A DNA stretch of 63,624 nucleotides, filler included, from Licmophora abbreviata (Eukaryota), in assembly GCA_900291995.1 (NCBI GenBank). It is 13 parts of 13 records of this genome, joined end to end, with 100 filler letters (N's around TTAATTAATTAA, not from the genome) between each part and the next. Parts side by side here need not be neighbours in the genome. Positions count along the whole stretch, not along the records: positions 55,219 to 57,430 come from OLMU01002512.1; 12 more parts are not named here. One strand, given 5' to 3'. The notes below the pieces were generated by a model that saw nothing but the letters and a program-made list of their open reading frames with translations, did not search any database and was not told where the DNA came from. Both the position numbers and the translations under genes were made by a program. Positions within the stretch are counted from its first letter, which is position 1. Every line of letters starts with the position of its first letter. Shown piece by piece: positions 12,908-61,200 of the stretch.

Positions 12908-13007
12908 NNNNNNNNNNNNNNNNNNNNNNNNNNNNNNNNNNNNNNNNNNNNTTAATTAATTAANNNNNNNNNNNNNNNNNNNNNNNNNNNNNNNNNNNNN
13001 NNNNNNN
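12908..13007. other. Artificial contig spacer N44-TTAATTAATTAA-N44. First of 12; the others are 23567-23666, 31512-31611, 36905-37004, 40637-40736, 43759-43858, 46764-46863, 55119-55218, 57431-57530, 58658-58757, 61100-61199 and 62363-62462
   Basis: Identical 100-bp block carrying stop codons in all six frames. Confidence 0.98.
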
Positions 13008-23260: not shown

Positions 23261-23666
23261 GCTCCCTAGACTCTGCTATGTATGCTGCCACTGCTTGCAA
23301 GTTGCTTATACACAAGAAAGCGAACAGATTGAGTGAGTCTCGATCAAGGCACCAGATTGTGTCGCATCTGCTTGCACTTTATGTGGCAACCACGTGAGCG
23401 CTGTGTGTGTAGCGGCAATCTCCGTGCAGAGAGTTCTGTTCAAAGTCTTAGCGCCCGTTGAGTCCCACTTCACTTGTGAACCTCGTAGCTTGTCGTACAG
23501 CCATACGACAACTCATCTAACAATGTGTCGCCTCGAACGATGGACTTTGATATGATATGTGGCAAGNNNNNNNNNNNNNNNNNNNNNNNNNNNNNNNNNN
23601 NNNNNNNNNNTTAATTAATTAANNNNNNNNNNNNNNNNNNNNNNNNNNNNNNNNNNNNNNNNNNNN

Positions 23667-31113: not shown

Positions 31114-32027
31114 TTACTGGTCTTCTCTGTACTGCGCTCCCTCGGATCCAAGTTGCAAAGCAGCGAAAATTCCAAGACTAACGGAGAATCCCAATAGAAC
31201 AAGAAGACCTGGTGTAAAGTTCGGTTCCACGACGTTGACGATAAACTGATCCACATCCTCCGGGAGCGGGTTGCCCGACGCAGCAGACCAAGCCTCGGCT
31301 GTTATGCCAAAACCGGCCGCGACAAACACTACCGTACTCACGGTGACTCCTAACTTGAGAAAACGATCAATGCCAATGAGAAGAGGCGCAGGAATCATTT
31401 GCATAAGATCTAGGTCCTCCTTCTCAGCCATCTTTTTCCACTCTTCGCGCTTTCGTCGATCTTCTGCCATCTTTTCTCGTTTCTTCGTGTCCGTCTGCTG
31501 TTCTTCTAACGNNNNNNNNNNNNNNNNNNNNNNNNNNNNNNNNNNNNNNNNNNNNTTAATTAATTAANNNNNNNNNNNNNNNNNNNNNNNNNNNNNNNNN
31601 NNNNNNNNNNNCGTTTCTTCGTGTCCGTCTGCTGTTCTTCTAACGACTTAAGGCCATACTGTTCCCGGAGAATCTGCTTCGTCCGCTCTTCCGGGGTGAT
31701 AGTGGGATCTGTCTTAGATTCTGATTTGGGTGCCTCCATCATGGTGGGAATCACCTCAGAACCTCCACGTTCGACGCTCTGTAGAATAGGCGCCGAGGAC
31801 TCGGTCGCAGCAGTAGCAGTCGACTTAGCCGGTTTTGCTTCTGCTGCAACAGCCTCTTTACCAAAACCCCTTCCTGTAGGAGATCCTCGCTTTCCCTTCT
31901 TCTTGGCCATCTGGAGCGTCGAAACGGTGTGCTGGCTGCTCACCCGCGGTGTCACTACGAACGCGGTCGCAGTCAGCGGCAGCATCATGAACACGGCCAC
32001 CAGTAACCCTGTCTTTTTTCCAGTCAT
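31114..32027 (-). CDS. LPA2: Plastid two-TM protein resembling LPA2 (low PSII accumulation 2); continuous across the false gap 31512-31611
   Basis: Signal TA-FVV. The C-terminal ASGNPLPEDVDQFIVNVVEPNFTP resembles the plant LPA2 inter-TM segment as I recall it (ASG.LPE..D.F....L.P.FTP). Gap flanks share a 34-bp overlap. Confidence 0.62.
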
Positions 32028-36904: not shown

Positions 36905-37115
36905 NNNNNNNNNNNNNNNNNNNNNNNNNNNNNNNNNNNNNNNNNNNNTTAATTAATTAANNNNNNNNNNNNNNNNNNNNNNNNNNNNNNNNNNNNNNNN
37001 NNNNCAAGTCGAGACGTCGTACACGACTTTCCAGGTGTGGCGCTACCAGTAAGCCCTCGGTTATCAAGACCCTGCAACACCGCATGGTGCGCTGCAAAGT
37101 CACGACAAGGAGTCC

Positions 37116-40303: not shown

Positions 40304-41064
40304 GGTGGCGGGACGAAAACACGCGACTCTTGTCTAGAAAGAAGTGGCTCATGAGGTGACGAATGTGACGAAACTTCACCTTCTCCTCTTCTCGTCGTCG
40401 CATTTTTGGCGCTGCGTTGAATTAATACGGAAGGCTACTGAACGGACAACGGAGTAGTGAGCGGATTCATGAGCGAAAGCTGCTTACAGAGCATTGTCTA
40501 TAGTATCAACTCACGTAGAGTCTACGATGAAGTATCTCCAAATCAGTACTGGTCACGGATTTCGAGACGGTACACACGGTTTATACTAATTCCTCCGTAG
40601 GAACATCACGCAAAACATTTAATGCATTGGTCGACGNNNNNNNNNNNNNNNNNNNNNNNNNNNNNNNNNNNNNNNNNNNNTTAATTAATTAANNNNNNNN
40701 NNNNNNNNNNNNNNNNNNNNNNNNNNNNNNNNNNNNTATCTTTCAAGTGTACTTCTATATATCCACTCTTATACAGTCGAATGTTGAGTGTCTGGCTCTC
40801 TATGGATGGCGTCTCGCGAATTCAGAGGCTACGGTCTCGGCAGGTTATCGAAGGTCATGCGCAAGCCGAGCTGTCATTTCCCGAGCGCTCGAATATTTCA
40901 GAATATTATTGAAAGTAGCGCTTAGAGATGCATCACGAGCGCTCGAAAGTACCCAAAGGAGTCTGTGACCCTTCCAACTAGAACCACCTCTCAATGCGAA
41001 CGCTTGTGTCGATGTGTTCGTTGGGATCACCACAATACTACTAAAAGCCCCGAGGAGTTTCGAA

Positions 41065-43209: not shown

Positions 43210-46200
43210 TCAGGTTAGTTCGAAGCCCGATCCAGACTCGATCGCATCGATCAACTTCTTTCGAAGCAATTCTTTACTTCGGTAGTTCGGTAGTTTTAGC
43301 AGATTCATGCAGGTCGCGCTTGTAGGTAAAGGGGCGTTCTTCGCTGCGTTCTCTCCTTGAAGCATGACATCCGGAAGACGAATCTGCTGCACACAAGGCG
43401 CCGGTTCGAGAGCCTGGAACCCCAAAAGAGGTTGCCGAGAACACGAAGTCGTGTACCTAAGAAATTGCCTTTGCTGTTCCCCAGTGAACGCTTCCAACAC
43501 CTCCCAGAACCACTGCATGATCTTCTGTGACGGATGATAGCCGCCGGCGTACTGCATTGCTGCTTTTAGTCCTTGAACGTCGATTCCTTTTACGGTATCA
43601 TCGCCGCTGATGAGTTTCTGTAACTCATGGGCGCTGAAGAGGCGAACCCATGAAGCGGGAATAAGATCGCGAAAGCCTCGAAGGAACGCTCGAGTAGGAA
43701 GGGCCGTCTGCACATTCAGTCGATGGTGTGCCACTTGGTGTATGTAAAGGATCAAATTNNNNNNNNNNNNNNNNNNNNNNNNNNNNNNNNNNNNNNNNNN
43801 NNTTAATTAATTAANNNNNNNNNNNNNNNNNNNNNNNNNNNNNNNNNNNNNNNNNNNNCACTTGGTGTATGTAAAGGATCAAATTCTCTTTTGTCACAGG
43901 AATTGCACTGCCGCCGGGCAGTAGCTCGACTGTGCGTGTTCTCGATCCGCTGCCGAATGTCGATTCGAATGTGAGTTGAAGATCGCTAATTTCACGCTCA
44001 GAGAACTTGCGCAGGTTCGTGAGGTTCTCGTAGTACTCTGCGTCGAGGTTCTTCAAGTCTTCGAGAGAGTTCTGCTTGCCTAGCAGCTGGTTCAGAAACG
44101 GCAGACAGAATTGCGGTTCCACCAGAATGGACTCGTAGACTGCTTTGCCCAAGACACGGCCAAGAAATTCGTAGTGAGCGAGAGTCTCGGGGGACTGCGA
44201 TGTCGCCATATCAATCGTTAACATCTGGGACGGTGTTATCGAGAACAGCGCAGGTGACCCTTCCTTGTGCTTAGACGGGTCGAACGCCTCCTTGATTAAA
44301 TCGTCCAAGAACTCTTTGAAGACCCCACCTCCGTCGATCCCAGCTTCTTCGGCGCCATGCTGGTTGATAAAGGAAACTTGAACTTTCTTTTTCAGACGAG
44401 GCCCTAGACCATTCAGGCGAGTCATCGAATCATCGTACAACGCATCCCGTCGTATCTGGACCTGCTCTCTACCTGATAGATTGACGTCGCCTTCGAGTTG
44501 CCGACCTTGCTCTGCCATTCGCATCATTGCTTGTCGAAACTCATGGGTTTCATCTTGCGTTTTGAGCTTGTCGGCATGCAAAAGAGAGTCAAATAGTTTT
44601 ACTCGACGATCAAACGGTAGTACCTGCGGTATGACGGTCAAAATACGAGCCATCTTCGGATCTCGAAACGATTCCGCGAGCGCATCGCTCTCCTGGTCTG
44701 CGGGAGGCATGGGCACATCGCCATCGTCCTCGCTTGTGTCCATGGAAGCCACACTCTCGTTCTCGTCAGGTATTGCTCTGTCACGAACCGTCACAACCGG
44801 AACGTGCTCCGCGCGACTGACAAGTCGCGGGAACCACCAACTAGCCTCAGGACAAAAGGGAGAGTGTCGCACCAGTCTGCACCACCTTTCATACAAGGAG
44901 TTCCAGAGTTTGGTGCCAGACAACATGAGACGAGCTCGCAATGCTCGAGACTGAACTTCCTCATTCAATCCACCCAAGCTCACGAGAACATCCGACGCCA
45001 CTACTGGTTTCGTCCAGTAAACCTCGTACAGGAGCGAGCGCAACTCTAGAATGACGCTTTCTGCAAAAATCAACGGAAGTCCACCCCGTGCTGTCGTGTA
45101 CTGCTCTAAGAACTCGTCATCACTCTGAGCCATCAAGTGATGCGAGAATAAGTCACAAAAGACTGTCATTCCAATCAGCAATTCTTTTCTGTCTTCCACG
45201 TGTTGTCCATTCTCTTCCATCTGCTCGCCATCCCGTATCCATAAACGAACGCTTCTCCACAACGCCTCCAGAAACGATTTGGAAAAGGCCAACTGCGACA
45301 CAAACGGTGACGCTGTAGTGCTCTGCCCAATACGAAGCCCACTCGCCGTCTGCAATAGCATACCCAGTACAGTCCAATACGCTGCAACAACTTCCGGATC
45401 CGCTTGCTGCTCCGCCAGCGCCAGCCCCCATCCCTTCCAAAGGCTAGGATCGCCAATCTGCTTGGCCAACGCCACGAGCGACGCCTTGTCGCTATTACTG
45501 TTGCGTGGTGACACTACAGCCATCAATCCATCCTTGCGCCAGCGCCCAAGCTGCTCTCGAAAGAGACGATCCAGTTTCGGTGCCGTCTGTATATCTTGCC
45601 TCGAATGCTGAGAGGAAGACGCTTGTCGCTTTGTGGGACGAGGCATGCGAATTGATGAGTGGTATGGAGCGTCGTCTTCTCCATCAGAATCACTTTCGTC
45701 CTCCTCCGCCCCATTCTGTAGGATGACGCGTGACGACGACGTTCCATAGACGAGTTCCTGAATATCTTCTCCTTGCACCACCAACATTGTCAAGAACGCG
45801 ACATCCTGACGTTGCTGCAACATATAACGCAAGAGATTCAATAGAGACAGGGGCGGTACTATCAAGGATGATTTCGGATGCTGACATGACTGGAGGGCGT
45901 TGGAAATCAAGATTCCCTCTCGACCCGCCACACGAGTCTTCAGCACTGCTTGCATCGTATGAGTAAGGTCACCATTATCCAAGGATGGAAGCAGCATGTC
46001 CACTAAGGATGTAAGCAAGACGTCATGTGTCCATTTCTCCTTTGCATCGTCCTCGTTGACTCCAAAATAGACATGAGGACCGTATTGAAACAAGAAGAGA
46101 GCTTTCTTCTTTGGTGTGCAAAAGACGGTAGAGCCAAGCAATGCCACGGCCTCCTTGGAAGCGAGTGTCGCTGCAGCACGACAGGATTGCTGCCACATAT

Positions 46201-47018
46201 ATACAATCAATGCGTTGGTGCTGCTCACGGACGATTGCAACGACGACTCGACAGGATCATCCTCCCACCACAACCAATCCTGGGTACACGTGATGAGTGC
46301 CATGTAGATCTCGTCGTTCCATGCAAAGACATTGGACTGACCCGGCGACGACAATACTGCTTTGAGTAAGCGAGAGAGTGAGAGTGTGGTGCTGGACAAG
46401 GACGTCGTCATGTCGGACGATCGAGGCACATGGGCGATGAGTGAGTCCAAGACTGCGAGTGCGATACGGCGGGAGGAAATCAGGGACATTTGTTGTTGTT
46501 GTTGTTGTTGTTGAACAACTCGTTCATAGTAGTCGACCAAGAGAGATGGAATCATTTGCTTGCCCAAAAAGGGCATTAGGGGAGATGACAGTCGCAGAGA
46601 CAGTACGTGCGTCGGATGCAAGGCCGTCGTCGTCTCCGACACCAGCAGGACCGTCGCCACATACTTTCGTAGACTCCATCCTCGATACAAGGTTTGCAGT
46701 GCCGTCGCTGCCTTTTGTTGACGCTGTACAAGTCGTCGCTCTTCTCGTAAGACACGTGAGGATNNNNNNNNNNNNNNNNNNNNNNNNNNNNNNNNNNNNN
46801 NNNNNNNTTAATTAATTAANNNNNNNNNNNNNNNNNNNNNNNNNNNNNNNNNNNNNNNNNNNNCTCTTGCGATCTTGAACACCCGTGACGAGCGAAGTTC
46901 GTTGCAATGAAGAGGACGTACTAGTAGTAGTGCTGGTGGAGATTCGTTGTCGACGACGACTGGAAGACGCTCCGCCTAGATCGATCGTTCGACGGGAACG
47001 ATGGCTTCCGTCAAACAT
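43210..47018 (-). CDS. HECT E3 ubiquitin ligase of the UBE3B/UBE3C/UPL6-7 type with an IQ motif; spans two spacers
   Basis: N-terminus MFDGSHRSRRTIDLGG, IQ-like AATALQTLYRGWSLRK at about 46670-46715, EAGIDGGGVFKEFL, and catalytic LPTSATCMNLLKLPNY...SGFELT. Flanks of gap 43759-43858 overlap by 27 bp. Confidence 0.92.
46490..46513 (-). repeat. (CAA)n microsatellite encoding poly-Gln in the HECT ligase
   Basis: ttgttgttgttgttgttgttgttg seen directly. Confidence 0.85.
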
Positions 47019-54856: not shown

Positions 54857-55272
54857 TTTCGTAATGTAGACTTATTTTGTAAGACGATGATGGTGACGAG
54901 AGGCAAGGATCAGCTTTCCTGGAGAGGTTCGGGCTTTGTCAATTCTAACGCATTGCGCTTTGATTGTACGTTGTGGTTCAACATGGTTATATAAGCTGGC
55001 TTGCCAGTTGCTGTCCAGTATGATGCTGCTGCCATTGTTGCTTTGTATTGAGCAAAAGAGCCGCTCCCTATGACTCTCTTGTGAGTATCATATAGTTCGC
55101 GGACGACGACACAACGACNNNNNNNNNNNNNNNNNNNNNNNNNNNNNNNNNNNNNNNNNNNNTTAATTAATTAANNNNNNNNNNNNNNNNNNNNNNNNNN
55201 NNNNNNNNNNNNNNNNNNTCTGCCATCACGCCGGCGCCGACTGCAGACCACCATCACATTGTCCTCCCATCC

Positions 55273-56876
55273 ATGATGGTGGCGATGACTCTAGCAGTGG
55301 CTGGTGTAGCCCTACTTCCTTTGTGTAGCACTCACTGGATAGGACTGCTTTTGTTGTCAATTGATAGTAGTGCAGATGGGATTTCGTTGAAAAGAACATC
55401 ACGATACCATCATCATCCATGCGACGACATCACGAGTCGCCTGCGACGCGGTCAAGAAGGAAGAATTTCCTGGGAAACGACGGTGCACATGATGGCTTCC
55501 TCACCGGAAATTGATGTCACCAGCAATGAGAGCCATCGCAGGATTCCCAAGGACAGCAGGGCATCGCAGAATAGAAGTAGCAGCAGAGTTCATCTGTTGT
55601 CGCTCCAGTGGCCATCCGAGGATGACGACAACTCCAACATGGATGGATACGACTACTACTCTAGATCTGCCGTGCGTGCACTGTGGCTTTGGAAAGATGC
55701 ATGCCTTGGGGATGGACGCGATTTCTTTGTTCCAAAGCCCAGGACGCTCTCCGCTCTCAATCGGTACTTGATGGATCGTATCCCACAAGACGTGACGGAA
55801 TGTTCCGTGATTTCCAACTGTGCTCGCTTCGAGATTGTCTTGACACAACAAACACTGACAAACGGTATTGATGAGGACGATAACGATGCAGCACTGAAGA
55901 GCGCAGTCTCGGGCGCGTTGGCGGCGCAAGTTCACTCGAACAGTCGATCCTCGCCTCACGGACCGGCCGCGTATGGGATGTGGAAGGAACAGCTCCGTCG
56001 TGGTTTTGATCGACCAGAGGTGATTGATTGGAATGCGAATGACGATGACGATTCTGCACCAGCGTCGTATTGTTGGAATCATTTGCAAGGTGTCGAATGC
56101 GTGAGTCGGCATCTGAATACCATTGCGTCCGGCATGGCAGAACGACCGAGTCGCCCAGGACGACCCGTACCATTCCGACCCTTCTCCTCCCGTGATGCGC
56201 ATGTTTTGTTGCAGTTGAAGCGTATAGCAGAAGTAAGTCGAATGTAACACGCGACGCTCGTCTCTTCTTGCTTGGGTCATGCTTGTTGTTGACAAAGTCA
56301 CCTGCTACACCATACCTCAATTATGTATTCTGCAGATTGCAGAGGGACCGAGAATACGAGCTTTGCTGAATACGGCGCTCCAAGCCGGCAAGTTGGCACG
56401 AAATCCGCATCGCATCCCCGAGTTGGAACCACTGCGTCGTTTTGGATCCGGTGGCGGTCGCTATTCGCAGGAGCCACCGCGGGCTCTGTCGGAAGCAGCA
56501 GCGTCGGTAGGTGATGGCTCGTATGTAGTTTGCAATGATGATCCGTGCTCTAGCCCCGCATGAGAATATTCGTGGTCTAATCCTTCTTGTTTGGCGCTTG
56601 GTTGGGACGCACGGTATTTTGTAGGCGGTAGAGGAGCTTGCCATTGAAACGAATGTTCGTCGGTGTATTGACAAGTTTCAAGCGATGGACCATGCCGAAA
56701 CGATTGCTTGTTTGCGACGCGACATACAGCGGCTCGCAAAGACGGACGAGGAGCGCAAGGTCGTGCAGAAGTTGCTTCATCAGCCGACACTGGAGGTTCG
56801 AGCGGGAGAACTAGTAGATATGGACAAAGTGCGGCAAAGAATTGATATTCATCTTCAGAAAATGAGAGCAGGATGA
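55273..56876 (+). CDS. Glutamyl-tRNA reductase (HemA)-like protein lacking the NADPH-binding domain; exons 55273-56232, 56336-56506, 56625-56876
   Basis: ECSVISNCARFEI (cf. E..ILSTCNRxE), G...V.RHL..IASG, AHVLLQLK (cf. GExQILGQVK), LLNTALQAGKLAR, and C-terminal TIACLR...VVQKLLHQPT dimerisation motif. Two phase-0 GT-AG introns. Confidence 0.7.
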
Positions 56877-56923
56877 AAGCTATACTGTATGATTTTTTGA
56901 CACACACAATGAATGCGCATGAA

Positions 56924-58657
56924 TCAACCAACATTGAAGGTTCTCTTCAAAGTTAACCGATGAGGTACGAGCTTGTCGAGAAGCCATTCGGAACTAAAAT
57001 GCTCGGGCATTGCAGAAGAGCCGTAAAGCTGGCCTCCGTATTTCATGCACTTGTAGTAGAGGGCGAAACAGCTTTGCAAGTCTTTCTTGTCCTTCCATGG
57101 CGACTCAGTTTGGAGATACTTGGATAACTCAATGTGACTCTTGAACTCAGTCGGTAGTTTGTTATCAGCACTGCCCGCCATCGAGATACGAGAAACGATA
57201 TCAAGCTCATCTTGCACGAAAGCTCTGGTCTGTGAATCGGGAGGTAACAGAAGGATGTCGGACGACTCAATATTTGCATTGGCCGAGAACAAACGATTCC
57301 ATAAACGTTTGAAATACTCTGCTTGAGCTCCAAACCTAATCTTCTTCAGATCACTCGAGTGCTTCTTTTTCAGTGCTTCAATTGTAGTCTTTAGTGAAGC
57401 GCTCACATGGTTGCATCGCATCAAGTGATCNNNNNNNNNNNNNNNNNNNNNNNNNNNNNNNNNNNNNNNNNNNNTTAATTAATTAANNNNNNNNNNNNNN
57501 NNNNNNNNNNNNNNNNNNNNNNNNNNNNNNATGGTTGCATCGCATCAAGTGATCAAAGAGTACCCCCGAAGCCGTCCCAAGGCTTCCAGCGTTTGCAAAG
57601 AAATATCGTCCCTCTTGGCCATGGCGGGCGCAGTGGCGACACATGATTCCTGGATATCCCACAGTTACATGCTTCCTCTCCTTCCTCAGGATATCGTCCA
57701 TTGTCGCTCGACACGCTGCGCTCTGACGCAAGACAGTTGAGGCAAATTCAGTCAAGTCTGGGAGGTCTTGAGGGAGAACGAGCTCACGGACGTTGTCTGA
57801 AGGTACAGCGTCAGTGACTTCCGCTCCTTGACCAACAGAAGTATCGAGACTTTCTGAAGCGAAGGCAATGCTTTGCAGGCGACAGGCAATAAACGGCGGC
57901 TGTTTGGGCTGCGGTTTGTATACCTCCCGGCACATATGATCATTTTGGTCAAAGAAGTCTTCGTAGTTGTCTGCAAGATAACGCGACAACTCGTTCAGAA
58001 CTCCTACCGTTTCATCTACATGTGACATGGGCAAACCCGCTTGTCGCAAAACGCTTGGTACGACCATGAGCATTCGCATGAGATAGGCTGGGCCGTCGCT
58101 TTCTACATCCCCTGGAACCTGGGTTTGTGAAACGGAGTCGTCGTGCACGTACGAAAGTGTGCCCTTCAGTTCTTCGAAGCATGTCTGGAGCGCCCTTGCG
58201 ATACTGTCCAGTCTCTCCTGTGATGACGCGATGTCCCCTGTCGATTTGCTTGCCAGAATCTGAACAGTGAACTGTTTGATCGCGTCTGCCACTGACCCTT
58301 GCATTTTCGAAGGAGTCACAGAATCTTTCGCTGACACGACGAACAATCTCTTTTCTAGTTTCGTGACATTTCCCAATCCGACGTCCATCACTCGCCTCTC
58401 GATTTTCGCCCTCTTGCGTGATTCTTCACGCCTAGCCTGTCTACCCCGTTGCCGTTTGTGCTGAGGAGGGAGAAAACTGACGTCGTCGGGGTCACCTCCC
58501 GACTTGATTCTCCATCCGTAGGTGGAGCGAAGACGAGGCCAAACTAACGCCAGGAAAAGTGGAAGCGAGCTCGGGTGCCCTCGAACTGCTGCCGAGGTCG
58601 CGTGCATGAAAACGCCAGGATAGTTTGGGCTGCGGTGCTCCGAGCGCTCTGTGTCGT
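56924..58657 (-). CDS. Hypothetical protein with a stramenopile-type Cys/His motif (GYPGIMCRHC...GRYFF...HLMRC); continuous across the false gap 57431-57530; 5' end lost
   Basis: Gap flanks share 24 bp (atggttgcatcgcatcaagtgatc), which joins the two ORFs in frame. The frame is open to the spacer at 58658. Confidence 0.65.
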
Positions 58658-58794
58658 NNNNNNNNNNNNNNNNNNNNNNNNNNNNNNNNNNNNNNNNNNN
58701 NTTAATTAATTAANNNNNNNNNNNNNNNNNNNNNNNNNNNNNNNNNNNNNNNNNNNNAATCCTATGTATAAAGTCGGCCACAACATTCCCACCT

Positions 58795-61099: not shown

Positions 61100-61200
61100 N
61101 NNNNNNNNNNNNNNNNNNNNNNNNNNNNNNNNNNNNNNNNNNNTTAATTAATTAANNNNNNNNNNNNNNNNNNNNNNNNNNNNNNNNNNNNNNNNNNNNT

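Follow-up and report, generated by a model that had tools for sequence, protein, structure and literature searches.

The gene at positions 55273..56876 of a 63,624-nt stretch of DNA from the diatom Licmophora abbreviata (assembly GCA_900291995.1; the whole stretch is referred to here as the window) encodes a protein that, judged by its predicted structure, derives from glutamyl-tRNA reductase (GluTR, also named HemA or GtrR, EC 1.2.1.70). An entire part of that enzyme, the NADPH-binding Rossmann domain of about 150 amino acids (aa), is absent, and the catalytic domain is followed immediately by the spinal helix and the dimerisation helices. The protein belongs to a conserved family and is not a decaying copy. 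Of the functions that can be envisaged, we favour that of a non-reducing GluTR derivative, to which we assign a probability of roughly 55%; to judge from the sequence, Glu-tRNA, or else an acyl donor related to it, would bind at the active site and would then be hydrolysed, transferred or held.

In the canonical enzyme, a cysteine attacks the aminoacyl bond of Glu-tRNA, the tRNA is released and a thioester is formed, which is then reduced by NADPH to glutamate-1-semialdehyde (PMC7242693, PMC3778395). GluTR that does not accommodate NADPH has been discussed as having esterase activity (PMC4726326). The enzyme dimerises via its C-terminal domain, which also binds the FLU protein, and a V-shaped notch has been proposed as the place of the glutamate-1-semialdehyde aminotransferase (GSAT) (PMC4726326, PMC3778395). 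Three domains follow each other in the M. kandleri enzyme: GlutR_N (residues 7-142), Shikimate_DH (156-292) and GlutR_dimer (305-403) (PMC4521371). The known enzymes closest to the window protein include this one (1GPJ), Arabidopsis GluTR (4N7R, 5CHE and 5YJL) and E. coli HemA.

The window protein resembles these enzymes in its catalytic fold, an S-x-C-x-R-x-E signature, a helix with GK/AK-x-x-R, a long spinal helix and C-terminal helices with L/I-H-x-P-T, all in the same order. It is unlike them in that the Shikimate_DH NADPH domain is missing, which would exclude reductase activity by this protein alone, and in that an RP-rich insertion followed by SSRDAH occurs instead of GLDS..GE.Q. About 90 extra residues are found inside the catalytic domain (residues 103-320, corresponding to 94-223 in Arabidopsis). 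Nothing in the window protein corresponds to G-x-N-H-K-T-A-P..RE, which is conserved in the N-terminal part of E. coli HemA; the motif W-x-W-K-D-x-x-L-G-D-G-R-D-F-F-V-P-K-P is found in its place.

The derivation from GluTR is settled by comparison of predicted folds. An AF2 model of exon 1 (predicted local distance difference test score, pLDDT, 73.4) matched, with its residues 103-320, residues 94-223 of Arabidopsis GluTR (5yjl_A; VIA Z 8.5, root-mean-square deviation 2.8 Å, 128 residues aligned), and the top three rows of the VIA ranking were all GluTR, the next row of another kind having a Z of 5.5. More extensive matches were obtained with a full-length AlphaFold model of an orthologue, P0007 (pLDDT 82.7, predicted template modelling score 0.81). 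The top six Foldseek rows were Arabidopsis GluTR chains (E 1.2e-3 to 4.1e-3, probability 1.00), while VIA-align returned Z values of 16.3, 16.2 and 15.9 for Arabidopsis GluTR and 13.8 for the M. kandleri enzyme, against 6.2 for the next unrelated row. Both ends are spanned by this alignment (model residues 68-423 vs chain residues 94-524), with 233-247 of roughly 400-430 GluTR residues aligned. The models thus contain both a GlutR_N-type catalytic fold (Z 8.5 for the window, 16.3 for the orthologue) and a GlutR_dimer-type C-terminal domain, as the alignment extends to Arabidopsis residue 524. A two-copy homodimer prediction for orthologue residues 60-445, made without an alignment, gave a score of 0.00 and no verdict, and so speaks neither for binding nor against it.

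Sequence comparisons point in the same direction. The Pfam matches of the window exons are to the two expected families, GlutR_N in exon 1 and GlutR_dimer in exon 3, and in the expected order; exon 2 matched no Pfam family. At E<=1e-3, a protein search with exon 1 had 281 matches, the strongest of which reached 9e-49 and 52% identity. When 42 full-length family members were scanned at E<=0.01, GlutR_N was matched in 27 and GlutR_dimer in 4, and among 20 further members, chosen as the longest and most divergent, the curated cut-offs were exceeded by one for GlutR_N and by three for GlutR_dimer. The single GlutR_N case is the Effrenium member P0257, with 36.6 bits over profile positions 20-151. 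Two collinear high-scoring segment pairs (HSPs) were also obtained when an Effrenium member was compared with E. coli HemA, residues 115-161 with 46-103 and 260-366 with 288-408. With hhalign, only the C-terminal 53 columns of the family aligned to E. coli HemA, at E 0.013 and a probability of 3%, and the best ESM Atlas scores (0.76-0.77, below the level that counts) were to GlutR_N clusters. The profile check proposed with the first-pass annotation has therefore come out as expected, as GlutR_N and GlutR_dimer are matched (below threshold in the window, more strongly in the family) and Shikimate_DH is not; a lack of any GlutR_N hit or structural match, named there as grounds for rejection, is not what was found.

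The absence of the cofactor domain is supported by several lines of evidence. Neither Shikimate_DH (PF01488) nor another NAD domain was detected in the window exons or in the 62 members scanned (42 + 20). When all three frames of the + strand between 55219 and 56900 were searched for G.G..[GAM], a single match was obtained, which lies outside the coding frame, so that the earlier statement that the spliced product and introns contain no GAGxM glycine motif is upheld. The introns, 103 and 118 nt long, are far too short for a hidden domain of about 150 aa. Landmarks in E. coli HemA (NC_000913) are C50, GEPQI at 113, AKRVR at 149, GAGE at 189 and HAPT at 390, those of the window protein being C183, SSRDAH at 305, AGKLAR at 337 and HQPT at 429. 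From AGKxxR to LHxPT there are thus 92 aa in the window protein and a median of 94 aa in the family (range 80-129, n=73), compared with 241 aa in E. coli HemA. The two Effrenium HSPs skip E. coli HemA residues ~104-287, and in the P0007 model there is no β-strand beyond residue 266, the helices leading into a 44-residue helix and two terminal helices.

Metagenomic DNA provides a view of the same layout that avoids intron prediction. Among 61 related metagenome loci, 11 carry all four motifs in one frame, and in 8 of these the whole span between the Cys motif and LHxPT is a single uninterrupted open reading frame (ORF); because of these 8 loci, the domain-less layout is independent of splicing assumptions. 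In the 20 loci with both motifs, SSRDAH and LHxPT lie 375-857 nt apart on the DNA (median 517.5), while the E. coli arrangement needs 828 nt of coding sequence. An extra exon encoding the Rossmann domain, which had been named as a finding that would overturn the proposal, is contradicted by these single-ORF loci and by the transcript-derived orthologues described below. In three same-frame loci (L032, L038 and L039) the stretch between the Cys motif and LHxPT contains 2 in-frame stops; these could be short in-frame introns, pseudogenes or the result of another genetic code.

The gene model consists of three exons (Table 1), each with a length that is a multiple of three, and retention of intron 1 would lead to a stop codon at 56245..56247, after four codons. 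The spliced product aligned to the transcript-derived orthologue P0018, which is marked 'type:complete', in one HSP covering aa 95-458 (43.5% identity, E 1e-91). Both splice junctions are collinear in this alignment, with zero length difference, and the splice model is supported for this reason; it is thus comparison with an orthologue that supports splicing of this gene. The two clean introns of the first-pass annotation are accordingly retained as probable, being canonical GT..AG introns in phase 0, and all motifs that it quoted (SNCARFE, RHL..IASG, AHVLLQLK, ALQAGKLAR, TIACLR and VVQKLLHQPT) are located where it had placed them. One public run matched 0.15 of the sampled words and yielded 4 short contigs, which together cover 8 of the 30 bins and contain no joints; this has no bearing on expression. 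One public contig, which is unspliced from 56201 to 56311 and so crosses the 5' junction of intron 1, looks like DNA.

The catalytic signature of GluTR is retained in the form SNCARFE, and its alignment with E. coli HemA is also obtained for a dinoflagellate member. The residues flanking the cysteine are altered relative to S-T-C-N-R-x-E (T to N and N to A). All 55 aligned members, dinoflagellates included, have C183 and R185, the residues that align with C50 and R52 of E. coli, and this agrees with the earlier claim that the nucleophilic cysteine has been kept. All 120 of the exon-1 matches listed contain the motif S[NT]C[AN]R. The only invariant columns of the 55-sequence alignment are, in window numbering, G146, C183, R185, F301 and P303. 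In the exon-2 helix, ALQAGKLAR is the counterpart of E. coli ..AKRVR.., and family alignment A1 shows no variation at the G, K and R of AGKxxR.

Two further regions are characteristic of the family. The first, W-x-W-K-D-x-x-L-G-D-G-R-D-F-F-V-P-K-P, falls into a gap of the aligned E. coli HemA; nearly invariant in it are W138, W140, K141, L145, D147, G148, D150, F152, P154 and P156. The second replaces the glutamate-recognition loop G-L-D-S-x-V-x-G-E-x-Q, which is absent, by G-M-A, an RP-rich insertion and SSRDAH; the insertion may also be described as ending in FSSRD. Besides the invariant F301 and P303, residues G287, R291, P292, R294 and S305-H310 are nearly invariant here, and in the exon-1 model a helix begins at aa 307. 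The replacement of this loop had been recognised at the outset and stands, with the refinement that more than a mere loss is involved: a 13-residue RP-rich insertion is followed by the nearly invariant SSRDAH that is the family's own. When SSRDAH is set in register with E. coli GEPQILGQVK, an Asp comes to lie at the Glu position and a His at the Gln position, which may amount to polar or acidic mimicry only.

A profile built from 42 members retrieved 421 clusters, each formed at 50% identity, when the limit was set to E<=1e-3; with limits of 1e-10 and 1e-30 the numbers were 326 and 222. The contents are known for the best 150 of the 421. Canonical GluTRs must be far more numerous than 421 clusters. 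The profile evidently does not reach them, and the family is for this reason regarded as well separated from canonical GluTR. Pennate diatoms are represented by Nitzschia, Fistulifera, Seminavis, Fragilariopsis, Amphora, Cylindrotheca, Pseudo-nitzschia and Astrosyne, centric diatoms by Corethron, Chaetoceros and Detonula, and dinoflagellates by three Symbiodinium species, Durusdinium, Effrenium and 'Dinoflagellata sp. MGD'. The first-pass annotation had proposed a search for orthologues in diatoms and ochrophytes; diatoms do possess them, though the family is not confined to that group since dinoflagellates have it too. Two transcript-derived orthologues marked complete, P0018 and P0187, show the same architecture. 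The contrary outcome envisaged in the first-pass annotation, a gene with no orthologues and relaxed selection, is at odds with hundreds of clusters in which the catalytic Cys and Arg are invariant. Taken as a whole, its proposal of a GluTR paralogue with catalytic and dimerisation domains but no NADPH domain is supported: the Pfam matches, the predicted folds and the many orthologues that share this layout all agree with it.

For the ratio of nonsynonymous to synonymous substitutions (dN/dS), one metagenome pair was usable (L013/L016, 96% aa identity, dS 0.027), and its value of 0.59 rests on too few changes to carry meaning; three other metagenome pairs contain in-frame stops. A midpoint-rooted FastTree phylogeny of 88 members places the dinoflagellates in one clade with the unnamed metagenome sequences P0198, P0204, P0189 and P0227, beside P0162/P0147, and the unnamed sequences of that clade may come from further algal lineages. 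A profile search with the dinoflagellate clade, in which candidates were limited by a word prefilter, gave 8 matches and no new named lineage.

The N-terminus of the window protein had been described as signal-like, and this is in agreement with the hydrophobic segment and the predicted helix at residues 2-29. An S/R/H-rich disordered stretch follows directly after it. Diatom presequences for plastid import consist of a signal segment followed by Phe, and several orthologues have a signal-like segment and then Phe. The hydrophobic N-terminus and S/R-rich disorder, together with these orthologues, suggest that the protein is imported into the complex plastid.

What might such a protein do? In a protein that lacks a nicotinamide site, the hydride step to glutamate-1-semialdehyde would be impossible for the protein alone, and with the cofactor domain missing we regard NADPH-dependent reduction by the GluTR-like protein on its own as implausible. 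The Cys/Arg site most likely still binds an acyl donor: these are the most constrained residues of the family, which argues that the site is still in use. Glu-tRNA(Glu) would be the default donor, as the Arg that presumably binds the glutamate carboxylate is retained. A Cys-thioester would be formed and then resolved without reduction, either by hydrolysis, making the protein a deacylase in the manner of GluTR esterase activity without NADPH, or by transfer; alternatively, the substrate would be held and so sequestered. In each case Glu-tRNA would be diverted or gated at the entry of 5-aminolevulinate (ALA) synthesis.

A number of observations weigh against this reading. In the window itself both Pfam matches are below the curated cut-offs, GlutR_N in exon 1 with E 0.11 and 12.7 bits (cut-off 27) and GlutR_dimer in exon 3 with E 7.5e-4 and 20.2 bits (cut-off 22.9). 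A sequence search of the PDB with the family profile listed 4n7r at E 0.31, below chance matches, and one with P0257 gave no match. The changes in the GLDS..GE.Q loop and on either side of the cysteine mean that the substrate may be something other than Glu-tRNA, and a conserved Cys can have redox or structural roles instead. Also, on reading the sequence, the cleavage region of the window protein is atypical, with no clear Phe-type motif.

A protein devoid of chemistry is the first of the alternatives, and we think it unlikely. It would act as a pseudoenzyme or scaffold that either forms heterodimers with canonical GluTR, yielding half-active dimers, or occupies partners such as glutamate-1-semialdehyde aminomutase, and would thereby tune ALA synthesis in algae. 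The retained dimerisation-type C-terminus and the remodelled substrate loop are compatible with such a role, and surfaces of this kind are used by plant regulators, FLU binding to the dimerisation domain and GSAT having been modelled in the V-shaped notch (PMC4726326, PMC3778395). However, the strongest constraint in the family is on the nucleophilic Cys and its Arg (55/55), which are usually lost in pseudoenzymes, and the C-terminal domain bears no more than a weak resemblance to the canonical one (the hhalign E of 0.013) and has a conserved pattern of its own, so that self-association fits better than pairing with GluTR.

We find it just as improbable that the protein is a neofunctionalised enzyme which uses another acyl donor or acceptor, or whose thioester is processed in trans by a partner with a cofactor site (a split system), with a role that may lie outside tetrapyrroles altogether. 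The new and nearly invariant elements (WxWKDxxLGDGRDFFVPKP, the RP-rich insertion and SSRDAH), the roughly 90 additional residues of the catalytic domain and the clear separation from canonical GluTR, with only 421 clusters reached at E<=1e-3, would be in line with this. Against it, the Arg that is paired with Cys in the glutamyl-specific signature has been retained, and no candidate for a partner or substrate emerged. Gene neighbourhoods in these eukaryotic contigs are uninformative.

That the gene is a duplicate in decay, or owes its form to a faulty assembly or to a gene model with a missed exon, is close to refuted: the contig is short (2.2 kb) and part of a linker-joined draft, and the splice model for this organism was derived from sequence alone, but the frame of 460 codons is intact with canonical phase-0 introns, and the same architecture recurs in the complete transcript-derived P0018 and P0187, in the 8 uninterrupted metagenome ORFs and across hundreds of conserved clusters, with an SSRDAH to LHxPT span in the 20 loci (375-857 nt) that is to be compared with the 828 nt coding in E. 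coli.

Within the preferred reading of a non-reducing derivative, a more specific proposal can be made, which we put forward tentatively and consider doubtful in its entirety. The protein would be a new tRNA-dependent enzyme or regulator of algae with a complex plastid of the red lineage, which deacylates Glu-tRNA(Glu), or transfers or sequesters its glutamyl group, and so sets the share that is available for chlorophyll and heme as opposed to translation. A possible functional analogy is with FLU and GBP, plant regulators of GluTR, in that the entry of ALA synthesis would be modulated via GluTR or its substrate (PMC4726326). The analogy would not extend to kinship in sequence or fold, as FLU is a tetratricopeptide-repeat membrane protein and GBP is unrelated, whereas the GluTR-like protein derives from the enzyme itself.

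The positions of all features are listed in Table 1. The window is a series of contigs and not one natural stretch, and adjacency across spacers is not reliable per se. There are 12 spacers of 100 nt, each composed of 44 N, TTAATTAATTAA and a further 44 N, a linker that stops all six frames. Only 54 nt of the contig precede the ATG of the GluTR-like gene (55273), and since no stop interrupts the frame between the linker and this ATG, the true start of the protein could be further upstream. The last 24 nt of the gene's contig (57407..57430) are identical to the first 24 nt of the next contig (57531..57554), and on account of this common sequence, which is like the k-1 overlap of assembly-graph nodes, the two are taken to be true neighbours; no comparable end overlap was found at the spacer upstream of the gene. 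A convergent gene on the minus strand (56924..57430 and 57531..58709) ends 48 nt past the stop codon of the GluTR-like gene and crosses into the next contig. Its upstream portion matches the chromatin-binding Pfam family MRG (E 5e-6, 26.4 bits vs a cut-off of 22.8), and this neighbour appears to be unrelated to the GluTR-like gene.

Table 1. Features of the GluTR-like gene, its putative product and the surrounding window (window positions; aa, residues of the predicted protein)
Feature	Position	Strand	Description
GluTR-like gene	55273..56876	+	three exons, 460 aa, two phase-0 GT..AG introns
Exon 1	55273..56232	+	320 aa (aa 1-320), ATG at 55273; hydrophobic N-terminus, disordered S/R/H-rich part, catalytic core from ~aa 103
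Intron 1	56233..56335	+	103 nt, gtaagt...ctgcag, GT..AG, phase 0
Exon 2	56336..56506	+	57 aa (aa 321-377); ALQAGKLAR helix, short G-rich loop, then direct entry to long helix
Intron 2	56507..56624	+	118 nt, gtaggt...ttgtag, GT..AG, phase 0
Exon 3	56625..56876	+	83 aa and TGA (aa 378-460); end of spinal helix and GluTR-type dimerisation helices
Signal-peptide-like hydrophobic segment, aa 1-29	55273..55359	+	from reading of the sequence; helix 2-29 in exon-1 model
Family motif W-x-W-K-D-x-x-L-G-D-G-R-D-F-F-V-P-K-P, aa 138-156	55684..55740	+	insertion between beta-1 and the helix preceding the Cys strand
SNCARFE, aa 181-187	55813..55833	+	counterpart of E. coli HemA S48-T-C50-N-R52-T-E54 in the alignment with E. 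coli VLSTCNRTELYL
Cys183 codon	55819..55821	+	
Remodelled substrate loop G-M-A-E-RPSRPGRPVPFRPF-SSRDAH, aa 287-310	56131..56202	+	in place of G-L-D-S-x-V-x-G-E-x-Q
LLHQPT in exon 3	about 56772..56789	+	
Contig with GluTR-like gene	55219..57430		2.2 kb, Licmophora abbreviata, within linker-joined draft window
Spacers 1-6	12908..13007, 23567..23666, 31512..31611, 36905..37004, 40637..40736, 43759..43858		
Spacers 7-12	46764..46863, 55119..55218, 57431..57530, 58658..58757, 61100..61199, 62363..62462		

Members of this family have so far passed under uninformative names. Those of Fragilariopsis cylindrus, Nitzschia inconspicua, Seminavis robusta and Fistulifera solaris are 'hypothetical protein' in the databases, the Effrenium voratum member bears the automatic name 'Glutamyl-tRNA reductase N-terminal domain-containing protein', and none has been characterised. 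The named relatives with the same layout, which are orthologues or close paralogues, are 26-52% identical to exon 1. Three of them, P0207, P0253 and P0254 (from Symbiodinium natans, S. sp. CCMP2456 and S. microadriaticum), are labelled 'uidB' in NCBI; uidB is a bacterial glucuronide transporter, to which none of our results point, and the label is probably an error of annotation transfer.

In the literature (supplements and subscription journals being outside the scope), we found no description of a GluTR without the NADPH domain or of these orthologues. Table 1 of a 2025 survey of heme biosynthesis in Phaeodactylum contains a single GluTR (Phatr3_J54134) and no paralogue (PMC11914136), a figure legend of a 2013 transcriptome paper names a single HEMA (PMC3592843), and a paper on the phylogeny of dinoflagellate GTR discusses full versions of the enzyme (PMC6078071). 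Nor did the literature search yield a diatom or dinoflagellate regulator that controls the entry of Glu-tRNA into chlorophyll and heme synthesis.

GluTR represents the rate-limiting and heavily regulated entry step to chlorophyll and heme. The family described here is a natural 'half-reaction' form of this enzyme, in which the acyl-enzyme site has been kept while the cofactor domain is gone, and diatoms and dinoflagellates alike have conserved it. If Glu-tRNA is indeed deacylated, used for transfer or sequestered by these proteins, they would constitute a control point for charged tRNA-Glu between tetrapyrroles and translation. Such proteins could reveal a new tRNA-dependent reaction, and they could show by what means tetrapyrrole flux or the use of Glu-tRNA is controlled in organisms that rank among the major primary producers of the sea.

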